A stretch of DNA of 64,000 nt, taken from the IMG/VR virus record IMGVR_UViG_3300034685_000168, positions 43,639 to 107,638 of that record; one strand, written 5' to 3'. The translations under genes and the position numbers were made by a program. Below are positions 27,051 through 58,639 of this stretch, one piece after another. This DNA comes from a virus. Each line of letters opens with the position of its first letter. Position 1 is the first letter of the stretch. Below the pieces are notes generated by a model. That model ran no database searches and had not been told where the DNA came from. It saw only the letters and a program-made list of their open reading frames with translations.

Positions 27051-27072
27051 TAATAGTAATATATAAATAAAA
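27051..27072 (-). promoter_or_regulatory. phiKZ-type early promoter (TATATTAC)
   Basis: Minus strand TTTTATTTATATATTACTATTA, identical to 34813-34834, 47 nt upstream of the start. Confidence 0.7.
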
Positions 27073-28844: not shown

Positions 28845-28899
28845 AATTAAATTTTAATCCTCTTTTAGAAATTAAAAAAATATAAGTTTCATATATATA

Positions 28900-28936
28900 A
28901 TATTACTTATGGGGATTTATTCCCCATAAGTAATAT
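28900..28936. terminator. Hairpin terminator
   Basis: atattacttatgggga-tttat-tccccataagtaatat. Confidence 0.8.
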
Positions 28937-28941
28937 ATACA

Positions 28942-34812: not shown

Positions 34813-34834
34813 TAATAGTAATATATAAATAAAA
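34813..34834 (-). promoter_or_regulatory. phiKZ-type early promoter (TATATTAC)
   Basis: 22-bp exact copy of 27051-27072, 45 nt upstream of the gyrB start. Confidence 0.7.
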
Positions 34835-39768: not shown

Positions 39769-39964
39769 TTTTTTCTCCTTTTTATATCTAAGTTAAAAAG
39801 CCCTAAAAAAGTATAACGTATTAATAACTTTTATAGCTCTATTTTGGCTTAAAAAGACGTCCGTGTATAATGATACACGGTTTGTATTGAACCTGTTTTA
39901 TTTAACAAATTCCATTAATGGAATATATAACTAAAATTTTAATGAAAAAAAATAAGAGGAGTAT

Positions 39965-39998
39965 AGATAAGAGTGTGGATAAAACCACACTCTTATCT
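39965..39998. terminator. Hairpin terminator
   Basis: agataagagtgtgg-ataaaa-ccacactcttatct. Confidence 0.8.
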
Positions 39999-40031
39999 TA
40001 AAACTTAATTGTAATCATGATTAAAATTAAA

Positions 40032-40334
40032 TTATTCCATAATAGATTTATTATATTCGTTAAATAAACCTAATAATTCATCCATCTTTTTAAAAAGTAG
40101 ATTCCGGAGTCTACTTTCTTTGATGAATTTGCAAACACTAACATAATGATGCATTACTATTCTCTTGTCAGACCAATCTATATTACTACCATCATTGATT
40201 AAATTAAATGATTCATTAACTACTTTTTTCAAATCAAATAATTCACATTTAATTTGGTTATGCAATATAAAATTAGTTTCTTCTTCCGCTTCCTTTTCAA
40301 TTTTATTTATTAAATCATTTATTTCTGTTTGCAT
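40032..40334 (-). CDS. Hypothetical protein
   Basis: Likely start ATG 40334 (MQTEIND) behind AAGGA. Confidence 0.65.
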   Translation of the reverse strand: MQTEINDLINKIEKEAEEETNFILHNQIKCELFDLKKVVNESFNLINDGSNIDWSDKRIVMHHYVSVCKFIKESRLRNLLFKKMDELLGLFNEYNKSIME

Positions 40335-40346
40335 TATCAATATTCC

Positions 40347-40382
40347 TTAAACTTTTTTTATTTGAAGTGACAAGATTATCAT
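40347..40382 (-). CDS. Candidate minigene MIILSLQIKKV
   Basis: GAGGAG 4-5 nt upstream of ATG; its stop overlaps the RBS of the next gene. Confidence 0.35.
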   Translation of the reverse strand: MIILSLQIKKV

Positions 40383-40401
40383 TTAACTCCTCTTAATTAA
40401 T

Positions 40402-40419
40402 TTAAATAAATACAAACAT
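40402..40419 (-). CDS. Candidate minigene MFVFI
   Basis: Extended SD AAAGGTAGGTGA 5 nt upstream of ATG. Confidence 0.35.
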   Translation of the reverse strand: MFVFI

Positions 40420-40450
40420 ATTAATCACCTACCTTTCTTTTGTAATATCA

Positions 40451-40472
40451 TAAAAGAAATATATAAATGATT
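40451..40472 (-). promoter_or_regulatory. Early-promoter variant
   Basis: Minus strand ATTTATATATTTCTTTTA; similar variants at 39916-39936 and ~39341-39359. Confidence 0.45.
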
Positions 40473-40499
40473 TTTAATTGAAATATTAATATATACAAC

Positions 40500-40690
40500 A
40501 CTCCGTATAAGAAAGCTATGCGGGGAAGCGGTCAGCTTCCACCCGCATAACCGCTTATACATCTGTGGCCCATTTTCTTGGTGTCCTCTCGGATCTTTAA
40601 TAGCATTACGCTTATTCTCTACATTAGTAGTTTATGTATACCAGGACGGGTACGTTATTACATCTAGTCTAACTTTAGTTGTAACCTTTA
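40500..40690 (-). ncRNA. Candidate structured non-coding RNA of unknown class
   Basis: GC-rich non-coding island; ~23-bp hairpin at 40505-40560 extended by G-U pairs on the minus strand; small hairpins including tcc-GAGA-gga; possible pseudoknot. Confidence 0.55.
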
Positions 40691-40705
40691 ACAAAATTTA
40701 AAATA

Positions 40706-41464
40706 TTATTTATTTTCAAAAATATTTGATAGCTCATCGAGTTTTACTTTTTTATCAGAACTTTGTTCTTTAAGTTGTTCAGTTTTTTCTTTAAGTTCTT
40801 TAATTTTATTTTCTGTCTTTTTAAGCTCTTCTTTTTTTTCAACAAGTAGTTGTTGATGAGATAATTCTTTCTGAGAAGCAGCAAGTTTTTTCTGTAGATC
40901 TAGAAGCTCAATCGTATATTCATTTTGATTTTTTTCGAACATAAGATCTGAAGCATCCAGAGCTGCTGCTTTTTTAGGAAAATGAACACGAATAAAATCT
41001 TCGACTTTCTGTTTAGTTTCTTCATCATCCCTAAGGTGATTTATATCCTGAAGAATGTCCAAATCATGTTTATTTTTCTTTGTTACTTTGTCGTAAATTA
41101 CAAACCAATCAAAAAATTCATTTATAACATAATCCCAAAATTTACCATTGAAGAATCTTCTGGAGTTGAAATTTTCAAGTCTAGAAGCTAGAATATCTCC
41201 AGGATTCATTTCAACTTCCCACACGTTATAAAAAATTTTACTAGTTCTATGTTGTTTCTTCTTTTTATCAAAGTATTTAATTTCTACAGGTTCTTTCGTA
41301 TGAGAAATTACAGTCACAACACCAGGGATATGGCTTCCATCGAATTTGAAGAAGTTCTCAAACTCTTGAGACCAGATAGTGTTAAATCTAGCTCGTCCAC
41401 CAGTAGAAGGTTTGTCAGTAATTTTAATTCTTCTTGGTTCTTCGTTCACAGTTTCATTTTGCAT
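40706..41464 (-). CDS. Orphan protein with a C-terminal coiled coil
   Basis: Likely start ATG 41464 (MQNETV) behind GAAGGA; the track's 41482 start is a TTG. Confidence 0.75.
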   Translation of the reverse strand: MQNETVNEEPRRIKITDKPSTGGRARFNTIWSQEFENFFKFDGSHIPGVVTVISHTKEPVEIKYFDKKKKQHRTSKIFYNVWEVEMNPGDILASRLENFNSRRFFNGKFWDYVINEFFDWFVIYDKVTKKNKHDLDILQDINHLRDDEETKQKVEDFIRVHFPKKAAALDASDLMFEKNQNEYTIELLDLQKKLAASQKELSHQQLLVEKKEELKKTENKIKELKEKTEQLKEQSSDKKVKLDELSNIFENK

Positions 41465-41640: not shown

Positions 41641-41800
41641 TTAAAAGCTTCTTGATTTCTCTAAACTTTTTTCTTAACTTCTTGATTTACAATAAAATTC
41701 TTATTAACTTCTTGTTTTCTAAGGCTTTTCTATTCTTCTTCTTGATTTACAACACTTTTCTCTCTAATCTCTTGATTTACAACTAAAAATTCTCTAACCT
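41641..41800. repeat. Five degenerate 30-bp tandem units with core CTTCTTGATTTAC (iteron-like)
   Basis: cttgattt/cttgtttt recurs at 41651, 41681, 41711, 41741 and 41771, an exact 30-bp period. Confidence 0.85.
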
Positions 41801-41849
41801 AGACTTTTAGGGTTAAAAGAAAAAAGTAACATAAAAAAGAAAAGACTAA

Positions 41850-42160
41850 ATGTATATATAATACTTCGTATTATATATATCTAATTATATAAAGGTAATC
41901 AAAAATTTATTATATATAATAATATTAATAATATATATTATTTATATAATTATATAAATAACAAGTATATAATACTACGTATTATATATTATTAATTATA
42001 TAATATTTAAACAATACATATTATTATATTATAATATATATAATAAATTAAGATAAGGTATAAAAGAAAAAAAGAAAAGAAAAAAAGAAAAAAAGAAAAT
42101 TTTGAGAAAAAGAGATTTTTGTAAGATTGCTTTTTTTTCCTTTTTCGTTTTTTTTTAGAA
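41850..42160. other. Near-pure AT palindromic region with A-tract and T-tract (candidate origin unwinding element or divergent promoters)
   Basis: Inverted repeats at 41853-41879, 41938-41961 and 41966-41988; A-tract 42062-42099; T-tract 42131-42156. Confidence 0.5.
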
Positions 42161-42249
42161 AATTAAGATTAAATTTTTTAGATAACTGTAAATAAAATTT
42201 TAGATTAGATCATAAAAAAATACATACAGTTATCATGTTATAAAAAACT

Positions 42250-44059: not shown

Positions 44060-44274
44060 GTAATTATTGTTAGTATTAATATATGGGATATAGAAGAAAA
44101 CCTCTTTTAAGTAAAAACATTTATATTATTCTGTATATTAATATTCTTTTAACATTATTATAAATTTGCCTCGGTTTATAGTAATGTCATAAGAAATCCT
44201 CTTTCTTTTTTTGGTTGATATAACCTGTTTTGCTCTTAGTGTATATCCCTAGTTAAACTAGGGATATACACTAA
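44060..44274 (+). ncRNA. Candidate small RNA with CCUC loops, ending in a hairpin
   Basis: Long stems with plus-strand G-U pairs; three loops containing CCUC; terminal hairpin at 44236-44274. Confidence 0.45.
44236..44274. terminator. Hairpin terminator
   Basis: ttagtgtatatccctagt-taa-actagggatatacactaa. Confidence 0.8.
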
Positions 44275-44353
44275 AGTAATCTATTATAAAAAATTATACA
44301 AAATTGTTATTATATATAAAAATTTATAATAATTAACAAAAAGGTATTAAAAT

Positions 44354-54713: not shown

Positions 54714-57608
54714 TTATTCTCCCATATTTATTGGTGAAAATGTTAATCTTAAATCAGGTTTTAACGAAAGTGTTTGGTCACTATTATAAATTAATTTTTG
54801 TTTAAGTATAGGTTGTGTGTCTTTATCTACACATTTTAATGTTTGTAATTCTGGATCTCCACTTATTCCTAAAGTATCTATAGAAATTATTTGATCATCT
54901 AATTCTTTTCTAATTTGTTTCTGTATATCTGAAATAGATATAAAACCATTTTGTATATTAGAATTTATAATATTTAAAATTACTTGTTTAATACTTTCTT
55001 TTATTTGAGTATCTTTATTGATATTTTTATCAACATAGACTATAAATGATAAATATATATTTAAATCATGTTCAATATTGATACCATTTTTAGTAGAGAA
55101 AATTGCTTTACCTATAGTTCTTTTAGGTTTGAAATAAACGTATGTCTGTGTTAATAGTTGATTTTGTACTTTATCGACTTCATCAATAAATAATTTAAAT
55201 TGATTAGATATATCAATACCTATTTGATTTAAATCAATATTAGATGGTTCTAATATCTTATTATCTAAATGTATTAAATCTATATTATATTCAATATTTC
55301 TATTAGATTTTATTATTTTATTACCATATTCATCAAGTATATAATCTCCAGCTCTATGGTTATATAATGTGCTACCATAAGTGTCTGTTACTATATCTCC
55401 TGCAGAGTGTAATTTATTAAGGACTATATTACCATCAACTATAGTGTAAACTAAAGATCCAGTTTCATCTGTTTCGTAAACATCTGTTGAGTAAGTTTTA
55501 GGTTCATCATTAAAATAAGTTTGATATTCAGTATCTGAGAAAGTAACATCTACATTAGAAAATATACTTTCGTTCAAATAATTACCTAATGTAATATCGA
55601 TTTCTTGATCTATCATTTTAATATATTCTTCTGTATCAATAACATCTAGATCATTAAGATATTTAGCTTTAGTAAACATCTCAACACTTATAGTGGTTTC
55701 TAAATTTATAAATATATTATCTATAGGTAACCCTCTATCATCTATTGTATTAGTTATATTAATACTATGGTTATCATTTATATTGTAATTAGTATAAAGT
55801 TCTACATCATAATAATGTATATCACCATCAATATAATACGGTGTTTTGTTAGCATCTATATATACTCTATTTATTCTAGAATCATCCCACATCCAGAATC
55901 TAATTATTAAATCTTCATTAGGTACTTCTAATAGATCAGATGATTTAATAACACCAACTCTAATAATAAATTTATGTTTTTCTTTTAATTTATGGATAAT
56001 AATTCCAGATCTGATAATCATCTGAGAACTAATTTCTATATTCTCTTTAATAAATTTAATATTATTTATTTTAGGATTTAACATATCATAAATAAACGAT
56101 AATGGGTATTGATCTCTAATAATTAATCTTACATGATAAGGAGAGAAAGTATATTGGTCATTATTAAATAGATTGACTCTATTAGAGTCTGACATGGAAT
56201 ATATAGAATTTATTTCTGTATCAGTTAATGGAATAGCTACGTTATCTTTATTTAATTTATAAATAGTAGAAGGAAGTATTGTAATAGATTGATCGCTGTT
56301 ATGTTTTATAGTAGAAATATTATCTATATTGTTAATATCAATTTTAGTAGATATTAACCCTGTAGATATGGGTTCGTATATCTTAGAAGAAGTATTATTT
56401 ATCGTATCAGATGGATTGTAAATAATAGAATTAGCTAAATAAATTCTTTTAGTTAAACTATCATTAATTAATTTTACTGATATATTTTTATTATTAAATA
56501 AGTTTTTAATTTGATCTTCTCTAACAGCAACCGATTTAATAAATTTTTTATTAATTATATTATCACGTAATTCTTCAAATTCATATCCATTAGTACCACC
56601 TATTATATCAGATTCTCCAGGATATAAATTTATTATAGGTATTTTATTTAGTATATTTACAAACTCATATTCTTCAGATTCTATTTCTGTTAATTCAAAA
56701 TTTATATTACCAGAAGAAATATTATTTAGAGTTATATTTAATTCACCTTTTGTTGTAAATATATCTAATTTTAATCTAGATCCTATACTTTCATTAGAAA
56801 AATATATTTGAGGTATTTCTATATTAACTTTATTATTTTCAATTTCAACAGAAAACTTAATAGTAGGAGAAAGAGGGTCATAATTAATACTAGACAAAGT
56901 TTGATTTAATTCAGACCATTTATTGTTTTTAAAATGATAAGCCCTAATAGCATAAAATTTATCTGTATATTCAATTGATTGTTTAAAACCTTTTCCTTCT
57001 ATTAATTCTTCTATAATTTGAGTTCTTTTAAATTGATAAATAGGGATTTGAATATTTAGCAGATTTAATCCACTTTCTTGTATTATATGAAAATTAACAG
57101 TATTATCAACTAAATTAAATAATGGATTAGTTTCATTAGTATTATGAGATACTATTATCGTTTCTGTAAATTTATTAATTCTTATTTCTATTGGATAATA
57201 AATACCGAAGTACAATCCACCTATTGTAAATACTGTGTTTTTAGGTATTATAATCTTTTTATAGTTTTCATTAAAATCCTTAGCATTTTTTATTAAATAA
57301 TCTCTATCTAGAATTAAATTAATTTTAGTATCAGCTGGAGAAGAAAATAATCCAACATAATCCCATGTATTCATGTGGTTATATAATTCATTACTAGTCT
57401 GGGCTCGTAGTGGATAAATACTATGAATTAATTTATCATTTTTATTAGATAATTCACTAACTAAAGTACTAATAGTTTCTAACATAAATGTTGGAACATT
57501 ATTACCATCTGCTATAGGATTACCATTTAATATTCTTGATTCCAAATCTTCTAGACAATATGATTGAATAGAAAGTTTATTACTTAAAAGATTTATTATA
57601 TTTGACAC
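54714..57608 (-). CDS. Baseplate wedge-like structural protein (phiKZ gp87-like)
   Basis: 964 aa; YPLRAQT..ELYNHM, YYPIEIRI, TTKGEL, GGTNG..FEELR, FSPYH; GTG start. Confidence 0.7.
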   Translation of the reverse strand: MSNIINLLSNKLSIQSYCLEDLESRILNGNPIADGNNVPTFMLETISTLVSELSNKNDKLIHSIYPLRAQTSNELYNHMNTWDYVGLFSSPADTKINLILDRDYLIKNAKDFNENYKKIIIPKNTVFTIGGLYFGIYYPIEIRINKFTETIIVSHNTNETNPLFNLVDNTVNFHIIQESGLNLLNIQIPIYQFKRTQIIEELIEGKGFKQSIEYTDKFYAIRAYHFKNNKWSELNQTLSSINYDPLSPTIKFSVEIENNKVNIEIPQIYFSNESIGSRLKLDIFTTKGELNITLNNISSGNINFELTEIESEEYEFVNILNKIPIINLYPGESDIIGGTNGYEFEELRDNIINKKFIKSVAVREDQIKNLFNNKNISVKLINDSLTKRIYLANSIIYNPSDTINNTSSKIYEPISTGLISTKIDINNIDNISTIKHNSDQSITILPSTIYKLNKDNVAIPLTDTEINSIYSMSDSNRVNLFNNDQYTFSPYHVRLIIRDQYPLSFIYDMLNPKINNIKFIKENIEISSQMIIRSGIIIHKLKEKHKFIIRVGVIKSSDLLEVPNEDLIIRFWMWDDSRINRVYIDANKTPYYIDGDIHYYDVELYTNYNINDNHSINITNTIDDRGLPIDNIFINLETTISVEMFTKAKYLNDLDVIDTEEYIKMIDQEIDITLGNYLNESIFSNVDVTFSDTEYQTYFNDEPKTYSTDVYETDETGSLVYTIVDGNIVLNKLHSAGDIVTDTYGSTLYNHRAGDYILDEYGNKIIKSNRNIEYNIDLIHLDNKILEPSNIDLNQIGIDISNQFKLFIDEVDKVQNQLLTQTYVYFKPKRTIGKAIFSTKNGINIEHDLNIYLSFIVYVDKNINKDTQIKESIKQVILNIINSNIQNGFISISDIQKQIRKELDDQIISIDTLGISGDPELQTLKCVDKDTQPILKQKLIYNSDQTLSLKPDLRLTFSPINMGE

Positions 57609-57610
57609 AA

Positions 57611-58639
57611 CTATCTTCCCCCTGTTCCCGAATATTTTCTAGTTTTAAATAACAGTTCATATCCATCACCTATATCATTAGATCTAAGTCCTATATAGGG
57701 AATACCGGCATAATTATCTTCCGCCCCATACCCTAAATTTTCATAATTTAATATATCAGGACAATAACGTTTAACTAATCGATTGAAGTCTATTAAATCA
57801 TTAACATTATTATATTCAATATAATTAGATGTAAATGAAATACTAAATTCTTTAGCAGCTTCTGAATATGTTTCATTTTCATTCATATTAAATTTAGCAC
57901 CATATGGAACTCCTTGTAATATATTACCAGCCGCTCTAGACCAACTTGTTATATGTCTATTGGATGGATCTAACATAAATCTATATATACTAATAGTATA
58001 TGGTAACCGTTCTAAATCTATATCTTCAGGATATCTTATTAAATCATTTTTTCTCATTAAAGATATCCATCTAAACCAAAAATAAAACATATTTAATAAA
58101 ATAGAAAATGGTAATTCCCTAACTTGTAAACTTATATCATATGTTTTATTAAATTCATCATGTCCTGTTGCAAATGCTAAGTTTTCACCTTGAAAACCAC
58201 CAGTTGTTGTAGACATACCCATGACAAAATCAGGCCATCCAGTAACACTCTTAATAGAATTACATAATGGGACATTAAAGGGATTTTCATAATTTATAAA
58301 AGGACATTGAATAGCTAATTCAATATTATCTCTCATAAATTTGGTATCCAAAATACATCTAATAGCAAACTGAATAGAAAATGGATTTGTTGTATCTAAC
58401 ATACCTAATACAGGGTCCATTCTTATATTAGGTGAAGATAGATTTAATTTAGGTCTAGTAATAAATACTAATCCAGTATTTTCAATATTAGAAGGAATAC
58501 TTTTATTACCATATCTATCATGATTTAAAAATACTTCTTGTATTGTGTTGAGATAACCACCAGAACCAGAACTTCTATTTAATATATCAGCATATTTTTC
58601 ACGTTCTTGTGTGGATATATCCATTTTAAAGTTAGACAT
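57611..58639 (-). CDS. Virion structural protein (phiKZ gp88-like, tube-like/baseplate hub)
   Basis: GLVFITRPKLNLS, GWPD, IYRFMLDP motifs. Confidence 0.65.
   Translation of the reverse strand: MSNFKMDISTQEREKYADILNRSSGSGGYLNTIQEVFLNHDRYGNKSIPSNIENTGLVFITRPKLNLSSPNIRMDPVLGMLDTTNPFSIQFAIRCILDTKFMRDNIELAIQCPFINYENPFNVPLCNSIKSVTGWPDFVMGMSTTTGGFQGENLAFATGHDEFNKTYDISLQVRELPFSILLNMFYFWFRWISLMRKNDLIRYPEDIDLERLPYTISIYRFMLDPSNRHITSWSRAAGNILQGVPYGAKFNMNENETYSEAAKEFSISFTSNYIEYNNVNDLIDFNRLVKRYCPDILNYENLGYGAEDNYAGIPYIGLRSNDIGDGYELLFKTRKYSGTGGR

Follow-up and report, generated by a model that had tools for sequence, protein, structure and literature searches.

A GC-rich intergenic island ending in a terminator-type hairpin in a very AT-rich virus genome

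The GC-rich, non-coding island at about 40500-40660 of the window studied here (a 64,000-nucleotide stretch, bases 43639-107638 of a 107,638-bp IMG/VR record) is a real RNA-level oddity without a full explanation, and it is not a demonstrated new ribozyme or switch. The reading that we favour, and that we hold to be about evenly balanced between right and wrong, is that the island would be the structured 3' tail of the transcript of the adjacent 252-aa gene, possibly freed as a small RNA, and would end in an intrinsic terminator. An earlier note on this DNA had described it as a structured RNA of unrecognised class with several hairpins and a pseudoknot, lying next to an orphan gene and perhaps partnering its protein. 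Below we lay out what the composition, the folding, the genomic setting and the searches for relatives say of these proposals, and then weigh the explanations against each other.

Results

The record has a CheckV completeness estimate of 45% and a GC content of 23.9%, and it encodes a divergent family-B DNA polymerase (PF20286), a split RNA polymerase (RNAP) beta subunit, a GyrB-like protein and an RNase H. Since the polymerase and the RNAP subunit share only 23-29% identity with phiKZ-like jumbo phages, we read the source as a phiKZ-like jumbo phage that is deep-branching and very AT-rich. All genes from 16377 to 42585 lie on the minus strand, the neighbours of the island included. The 252-aa gene (40706-41464; an open reading frame with its translation, protein P0001) reads towards the island, and a 100-aa gene (40032-40334), with AAGGA ahead of its ATG and an in-frame UAA five codons before that ATG, lies downstream. 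The GC content at third codon positions (GC3) is 0.206 for the 252-aa gene and 0.198 for the 100-aa gene, ranking 5th and 6th among 91 ORFs with a median of 0.113; a GC3 of about 0.20 across 40032-41464 hints that this locus was acquired later than the core genes. Upstream of the 252-aa gene there is a tandem array of a 30-bp unit, CTTCTTGATTTACAACACTTTTCTATTCTA (41648-41783; 4.5 copies, 70% matches), followed at 41870-42200 by AT-only repeats and a poly-purine tract (42062-42099), and it is there that gene orientation flips.

Segment by segment, GC amounts to 0.515 at 40500-40565 and 0.389 at 40566-40660, and drops to 0.22 at 40661-40705 and to 0.18 at 40341-40499, the intergenic mean being 0.216. 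When all 95-nt intergenic windows of the whole 107.6-kb record are compared, only the island and a tRNA cluster (Asn, Gln and Leu at record bases 1295-1734, found by ARAGORN and Rfam) exceed about 0.39; the remaining GC-rich spots of the record are inside ORFs. The island is thus, as had been claimed, far richer in GC than its surroundings. It was drawn too long, however: the earlier note extended it to 40690, but 40661-40690 is AT-rich (0.22) and the hairpin at 40657-40686 folds no better than chance (z +0.28 on the minus strand), so that the real island spans about 160 nt. No ORF with a start codon covers it in any frame, and the stop-free frames that cross it on both strands have a GC content of 0.32-0.44 at all three codon positions, compared with a GC3 of about 0.1 in the genes, and no Pfam match. 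A coding explanation was dropped, since the frames lack a start codon, codon periodicity and any Pfam match. We refer below to 40505-40560 as the hairpin and to the GC-elevated (0.39), non-coding remainder at 40566-40660, a composition outlier among the intergenic sequences that holds the small hairpins and the proposed pseudoknot, as the body.

The one element of the island with a strong folding signal is the imperfect 23-bp hairpin at 40505-40560, which on the minus strand consists of 7 + 11 + 5 bp interrupted by a 1x2 internal loop and a 2-nt bulge and capped by the loop UGACC. It had been picked out from the sequence before and it is real: it folds with -31.2 kcal/mol (z -4.9) on the minus strand and with -27.0 kcal/mol (z -5.2) on the plus strand, and 0 of 200 shuffles were equally stable. 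The advantage of about 4 kcal/mol on the minus strand comes from the pairs G40552-U40514 and U40550-G40516, which form solely on that strand and are A-C oppositions on the other. Directly 3' of the 16-bp upper stem lies the U-rich tail UUCUUAUAC (40505-40513, minus strand), which doubles as the 3' arm of the AU-rich basal stem; the transcript would continue from the upper stem as UUCUUAU, an interrupted tract with U at five of its seven positions. A scan for consensus terminators made no call here, because the stem is bulged.

The position of the hairpin is that of the end of a transcription unit, 21 nt before a copy of the recurrent early-promoter motif on the minus strand described below. 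The terminators that this phage usually employs are perfect palindromes of 8-19 bp that start at a median of about 11 nt past the stop codon, 37 of 50 within 27 nt, whereas the hairpin of the island starts 145 nt past the stop codon of the 252-aa gene; from this difference we infer that an extra RNA segment has been placed ahead of the terminator. Long, perfect palindromes that fold as hairpins of 12-19 bp with -20 to -33 kcal/mol abound in the intergenic DNA of the phage (for example at 44213-44282, 39948-40017 and 28868-28937) and are probably bidirectional terminators. The hairpin at 40505-40560 is unlike these in being imperfect and GC-rich along its whole length. Taken together, it is a probable intrinsic terminator and stabiliser of the 3' end.

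The folding of the body is another matter. Against dinucleotide shuffles, 40563-40660 scores z -0.97 on the minus and -0.43 on the plus strand, and 40563-40700 scores -0.02 and -0.92, respectively. The z of about -2.5 for the whole element (-2.75 for the plus-strand fold) is carried by the 40505-40560 hairpin alone, as separate folding of the pieces makes clear. All of the inverted repeats that had been noted are present where they were placed, including GTATAAG/CTTATAC, TATGCGGG/CCCGCATA and AAGCGGT/ACCGCTT, and their presence does not make a structure: with z between -0.02 and -0.97, the small hairpins (ctac/gtag, agc/gct and tcc-GAGA-gga) belong to a segment that folds no better than its shuffles. 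A pseudoknot between the loop of a stem and aggac fares no better: when the body is dinucleotide-shuffled 1000 times, 410 of the shuffles (41%) contain a hairpin of at least 5 bp with a loop that can pair with 5 nt elsewhere. The ornate secondary structure with its pseudoknot is without support, and the case shows that structures spotted by eye, hairpins and pseudoknots alike, should be checked against shuffled sequences.

A few pairings deserve mention in their own right. The GNRA loop, GAGA, exists on the minus strand only. The alternative 7-bp pairing AAGCGGU/ACCGCUU, which had been proposed to compete with the long hairpin, is present and is topologically exclusive with the terminator, but the alternative state is 13.5-16.6 kcal/mol less stable, so at least 13.5 kcal/mol above the minimum free energy (MFE), and by chance alone 200 nt should hold about one perfect 7-bp complement. 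A domain of four hairpins could be closed by UAUACAU/AUGUAUA, another long-range pairing of 7 bp. In its plus-strand form, the body's long-range helix includes two G-U pairs, which are mismatches on the minus strand.

The setting for transcription is given by a recurrent motif, TTTCAATTAA-N5-TCATTTATATATTTC, whose core TATATATT[AT]C has 16 exact occurrences across the record (13 on the minus strand), often with TTTCAATTAA-N5-TCATT ahead. Minus-strand copies in the window lie at 40456-40483, 34818-34827, 28930-28939 and 27056-27065, and further copies precede the window in the record. Almost always they sit on the gene strand, usually with a hairpin and a T run right before them and small genes after them, and they look like the early-promoter class of this phage, similar in kind to the AT-rich early-promoter element of phiKZ (PMC8244752). 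The copy next to the island covers 40459-40483 as a full motif, 21 nt past the hairpin, with 40456 as the end of its TATATATTTC core. It is predicted to open the next transcription unit, and the 100-aa gene appears to be served by it and not by the island. Between this motif and the 100-aa gene, at 40341-40455, there are two very short ORFs with strong Shine-Dalgarno (SD)-like sequences (AAAGGTAGGTGA-ATG... and GAGGAG-ATG...). No copy of the early-promoter motif lies upstream of the island on either strand, even with one mismatch allowed; a promoter of the middle or late class may lie immediately ahead of it.

The class of the island is unrecognised in the sense that the earlier note intended. 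At the gathering threshold, Rfam 15 matches nothing in the window or elsewhere in the record besides the three tRNAs; in E-value mode (E 10) over 40300-40900 the best match is an L20 leader at E 2.2, with 15.9 bits against the 58.7 needed and covering the hairpin only. No ribozyme or riboswitch family of Rfam matches at E 10, ARAGORN reports neither tRNA nor tmRNA in the window, and RF00005 has no match at E 10. A group I intron was rejected on three grounds: there is no RF00028 match at E 10, the downstream ATG has an in-frame UAA five codons ahead of it, and the gene that starts there comes with a promoter motif and an SD of its own. The last ground also bears on a riboswitch or attenuator leader; the island is situated 3' to the 252-aa gene, 170 nt short of the next one. 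A large RNA of the GOLLD or ROOL type (>400 nt, multi-domain) was ruled out for an island of about 160 nt with no Rfam match, and readings as a CRISPR repeat or a tRNA fragment were dropped on inspection by eye only, which brought up no supporting feature.

Relatives were sought with equal lack of success. There is no second copy in the record; blastn against GenBank phages returned only chance AT-rich matches; neither exact 18- to 27-mers in IMG/VR nor 21- and 27-mers in GTDB genomes were found, nor was a two-anchor pattern of the island in JGI metagenomes. A DNA search of two related virus records (G001 and G002) gave none, and a covariance model built from the single sequence (R1) recovered, over G001, G002 and the whole record, only the island itself and the reverse strand of the hairpin. 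Complementarity to other regions of the phage is confined to short AT-rich or codon-level chance matches, with CTAATGTAGAGAATA-like sites inside genes. The island has no terminal repeats or target duplications of note. Across the collections searched (IMG/VR, JGI metagenomes, GTDB, GenBank phages and the closest syntenic relative), the island is by these sequence comparisons a singleton.

The closest relative that could be retrieved is G002 (IMGVR_UViG_3300028045_000001), with 239,960 bp, terminal repeats, 39% GC and 38% polymerase identity; G001 is more distant, and judged by the polymerase the nearest relative is P0007, from a 221-kb NCBI metagenome contig. At this locus G002 is syntenic in its polymerase, RNase H, a variable region, a 182-aa gene, RNAP beta and GyrB, and the contents of the block from RNase H to RNAP beta are wholly different in the two phages, which makes this block a variable region. 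Two places in G002 drew our attention. Between its polymerase and RNase H genes, at 55779-56010 (L015:15779-16010), there is an ORF-free element of about 230 nt with a GC content of up to 0.60, an 18-bp terminal helix (TGCAGGGCCTGTCCAAC...GTTGGACACCAGGCCCTGCA), a fold z of -3.6 and no Rfam match; it is a structured RNA or else a small element bounded by terminal inverted repeats. At the place syntenic to the island, 57395-57715 (L015:17395-17715), there are two GC-rich non-coding units, each ending in a hairpin and a T run, with a TATATATTAC promoter-like motif between them. These units may be early-expressed small RNAs, and they have no detectable similarity to the island of the window.

The 252-aa protein had been called an orphan, which is right in so far as it has no Pfam or PHROG match and as a word-indexed database returned only variants 98-100% identical to it (P0001 and its 98% variants, P0003-P0005, are encoded on about 15 contigs), but a distant family exists in metagenomes. 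Exhaustive HMMER searches brought up P0017 (a cluster of 147 members on contigs of up to 29.7 kb), P0018, and P0020 together with P0035, at 23-31% identity; about 16 columns are invariant overall, among them W82, E85, F99, R103, W110, E116, I158-R159, K164 and L169-D170, and tblastn of the family P0017/P0018/P0020/P0035 onto the record gives E values of 1e-9 to 1e-15. With an alignment of nine sequences, AlphaFold (AF2) reached a pLDDT of 77.6 and a pTM of 0.60, compared with a pLDDT of 55.6 for the single-sequence model, and predicts a six-stranded beta domain (residues 11-97), three helices and a 75-residue coiled-coil helix. Foldseek found no significant match to this model, the best being ribosomal protein bL21 (E 0.07-0.1, TM 0.34 by target, rmsd 11); VIA-align gave coiled-coil matches only and the ESM Atlas no usable match. 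Searches of viral, metagenome and genome collections for syntenic copies, with P0001, alignments A1 and A3, and P0017, returned nothing usable, and tblastn of the family against GenBank phages was empty. On the predicted structure, an RNA-binding assignment for this protein would not be justified.

Discussion

Let us consider first the reading that the island is a transcript tail. The layout, from the 252-aa gene through about 145 nt of extra GC-rich RNA to the terminator hairpin and on to the next early promoter, suggests that the minus-strand transcript of the 252-aa gene would run on into the island and carry a 3' untranslated tail of about 200 nt. Its last 56 nt would fold as the long GC-rich imperfect hairpin, followed by UUCUUAU, which would halt transcription, guard the 3' end and insulate the 252-aa unit from the early promoter 21 nt beyond. 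The GC-rich body of 100 nt might remain loosely structured and free for pairing or protein binding, perhaps as a small RNA derived from the 3' UTR or co-transcribed. We favour this scenario because of the position of the island, the strand asymmetry of the hairpin, its U tail and the lack of a promoter motif of its own; minus-strand transcription, termination at the hairpin and any trans-acting role are what we infer from these features.

The earlier note had considered that the island might be only a terminator. The hairpin is indeed exactly where a terminator should be, but the GC of the 100 nt ahead of it is left over; it is the one fact that a bare terminator leaves unexplained, and it keeps us from regarding the idea of the note as refuted. 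At 39% over 95 nt, compared with about 20% in free non-coding DNA, the GC content of the body points to constraint or to recent import. As it exceeds that of all other non-coding DNA of the phage, tRNAs aside, constraint at the level of RNA is implied, for which a small RNA of the kind just described would be the most ordinary cause. Against the transcript-tail reading it must be said that this constraint is deduced from composition alone and that a recent foreign insertion would give an equal composition; the interrupted U tract, the body without a thermodynamic structure signal and the plus-strand G-U pairs in the long-range helix count against it as well.

An import of that sort, in which GC-richer foreign DNA was acquired recently and has not yet drifted, and in which only the hairpin is in use, as a terminator, is an explanation that we regard as unlikely. 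The source could have been an intergenic or terminator sequence of the donor arriving together with the 252-aa gene, or a dead fragment of a mobile element or gene. The raised GC3 of the 252-aa and the next gene, the variability of the RNase H to RNAP-beta region, which is entirely different in G002, and the singleton status of the element all agree with such an origin. The GC gradient does not: at 0.39-0.52 the island is well above the preceding gene (0.30), the opposite of neutral decay, since unconstrained non-coding DNA should shed GC faster than coding DNA. In addition, no donor was found with 18- to 27-mers in GTDB genomes, IMG/VR and JGI metagenomes, and the sequence has neither terminal repeats nor target duplications worth noting, nor a protein-family match in any frame.

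That the island is a stand-alone structured RNA of a new class, be it a cis-acting switch or attenuator governing read-through of the hairpin, a ribozyme or an RNA partner of the 252-aa protein, we consider rather unlikely. A high GC content kept up in an AT-biased genome would fit this idea; so would the AAGCGGU/ACCGCUU pairing that excludes the terminator, the UAUACAU/AUGUAUA pairing that could close a multi-hairpin domain, and the promoter- and terminator-flanked GC-rich non-coding units that G002 has at the syntenic place. Other data speak against it: the body folds no better than shuffles and its pseudoknot does not exceed chance, a perfect 7-bp complement should turn up about once per 200 nt in any case, and the antiterminator state lies 13.5 kcal/mol above the MFE. 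A riboswitch would be misplaced at a site 3' of one gene with the next gene under its own promoter, none of the ribozyme and riboswitch families of Rfam matches at E 10, and the covariance model is empty in G001 and G002. As neither a relative nor a significant fold apart from the hairpin was found, we see no warrant for claiming a new RNA class, and we would call the ribozyme, switch or protein-binding RNA of the earlier note improbable. A narrower variant, in which a lineage-specific regulatory RNA uses a protein- or ligand-responsive 40566-40660 to set termination at the hairpin against read-through into the early-gene block, with P0001 as perhaps its partner, is quite improbable in our estimate; if P0001 did partner such an RNA, its distant relatives would carry analogous RNAs.

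One might also suppose a DNA-level element tied to the repeats at 41648-42200, for example the hairpin acting on single-stranded DNA as an origin priming or assembly signal. The 30-bp array (4.5 copies, 41648-41783) and the AT-rich repeats about 1 kb off, where orientation flips, would suit this, as would the near equal stability of the hairpin on both strands. We nevertheless judge it very improbable: the array is at most a putative origin, a whole gene separates it from the hairpin, the G-U asymmetry and the U tail suit an RNA on one strand, and the GC-rich body is left unexplained. Finally, a plus-strand small RNA antisense to local genes, beginning 5' with the big hairpin and continuing into a multi-branch body that GCCC..CUUGGU / ACCAGG.GGGU would close, could call upon the plus-strand fold (z -2.75), the two G-U pairs of the long-range helix that are impossible on the minus strand and a 76-codon stop-free frame spanning the island, but it is highly improbable given the lack of a promoter motif on the plus strand and of a convincing terminator past 40686, a body z of only -0.4 to -0.9, and an open frame without start codon, periodicity or family match.

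Returning to the transcript tail that we favour, what it would mean depends on the body. If there is only a terminator and a tail, the island is ordinary, and its value is that of an annotated transcription-unit boundary in a divergent phiKZ-like phage of 24% GC. If the body is constrained, a regulated terminator or the RNA partner of a new protein family would open jumbo-phage gene regulation to test, and to our knowledge very little has been learned so far about small RNAs in jumbo phages that form a nucleus. The case also shows that an island of raised GC in an AT-rich phage is a reliable sign of a feature at the RNA level.

How does the island compare with known systems? With GOLLD and ROOL it has in common that these too are GC-richer, ORF-free islands in jumbo-phage genomes whose function is not known; it differs from them in its length of about 160-190 nt, its single copy, and the lack of an Rfam match, of relatives and of a significant multi-helix fold. 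The R sites of T7 early mRNA, which are cut by RNase III, are irregular intergenic hairpins, about two helical turns long and bearing an internal loop, that lie between phage genes, and the island hairpin resembles them in every one of these respects: it is irregular and intergenic, spans about two helical turns and has an internal loop. It differs in that a U tract and a promoter come after it, and in that we know it from its sequence alone; we know of no U tract and promoter after the T7 R sites.

The small RNAs of giant phages offer another parallel. In 201phi2-1 and phiKZ, ONT-cappable-seq has uncovered small RNAs (<250 nt) in intergenic regions and UTRs that end at terminators, and a conserved small RNA of phiKZ-like phages has been described upstream of a tail gene (PMC11512511). 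The island shares no sequence or positional homology with the phiKZ and 201phi2-1 RNAs, being a singleton that so far exists only as a predicted feature of a genome sequence. It is like them, and like the small RNAs derived from bacterial 3' UTRs, in being short, non-coding, located in an intergenic region or UTR, and terminator-ended. Compared with the other terminators of its own phage, the island hairpin is longer and imperfect, with a bulge and an internal loop, its U tract is interrupted, and 100 nt of GC-rich sequence stand ahead of it. There is also a likeness to intrinsic terminators with an extended basal stem of A tract and U tract, in which, as here, a GC-rich stem-loop precedes a U-rich run (an interrupted one in the island) and an A-rich arm upstream pairs with the U tract; and like intrinsic terminators in general, the island hairpin would end its transcription unit just ahead of the next promoter.
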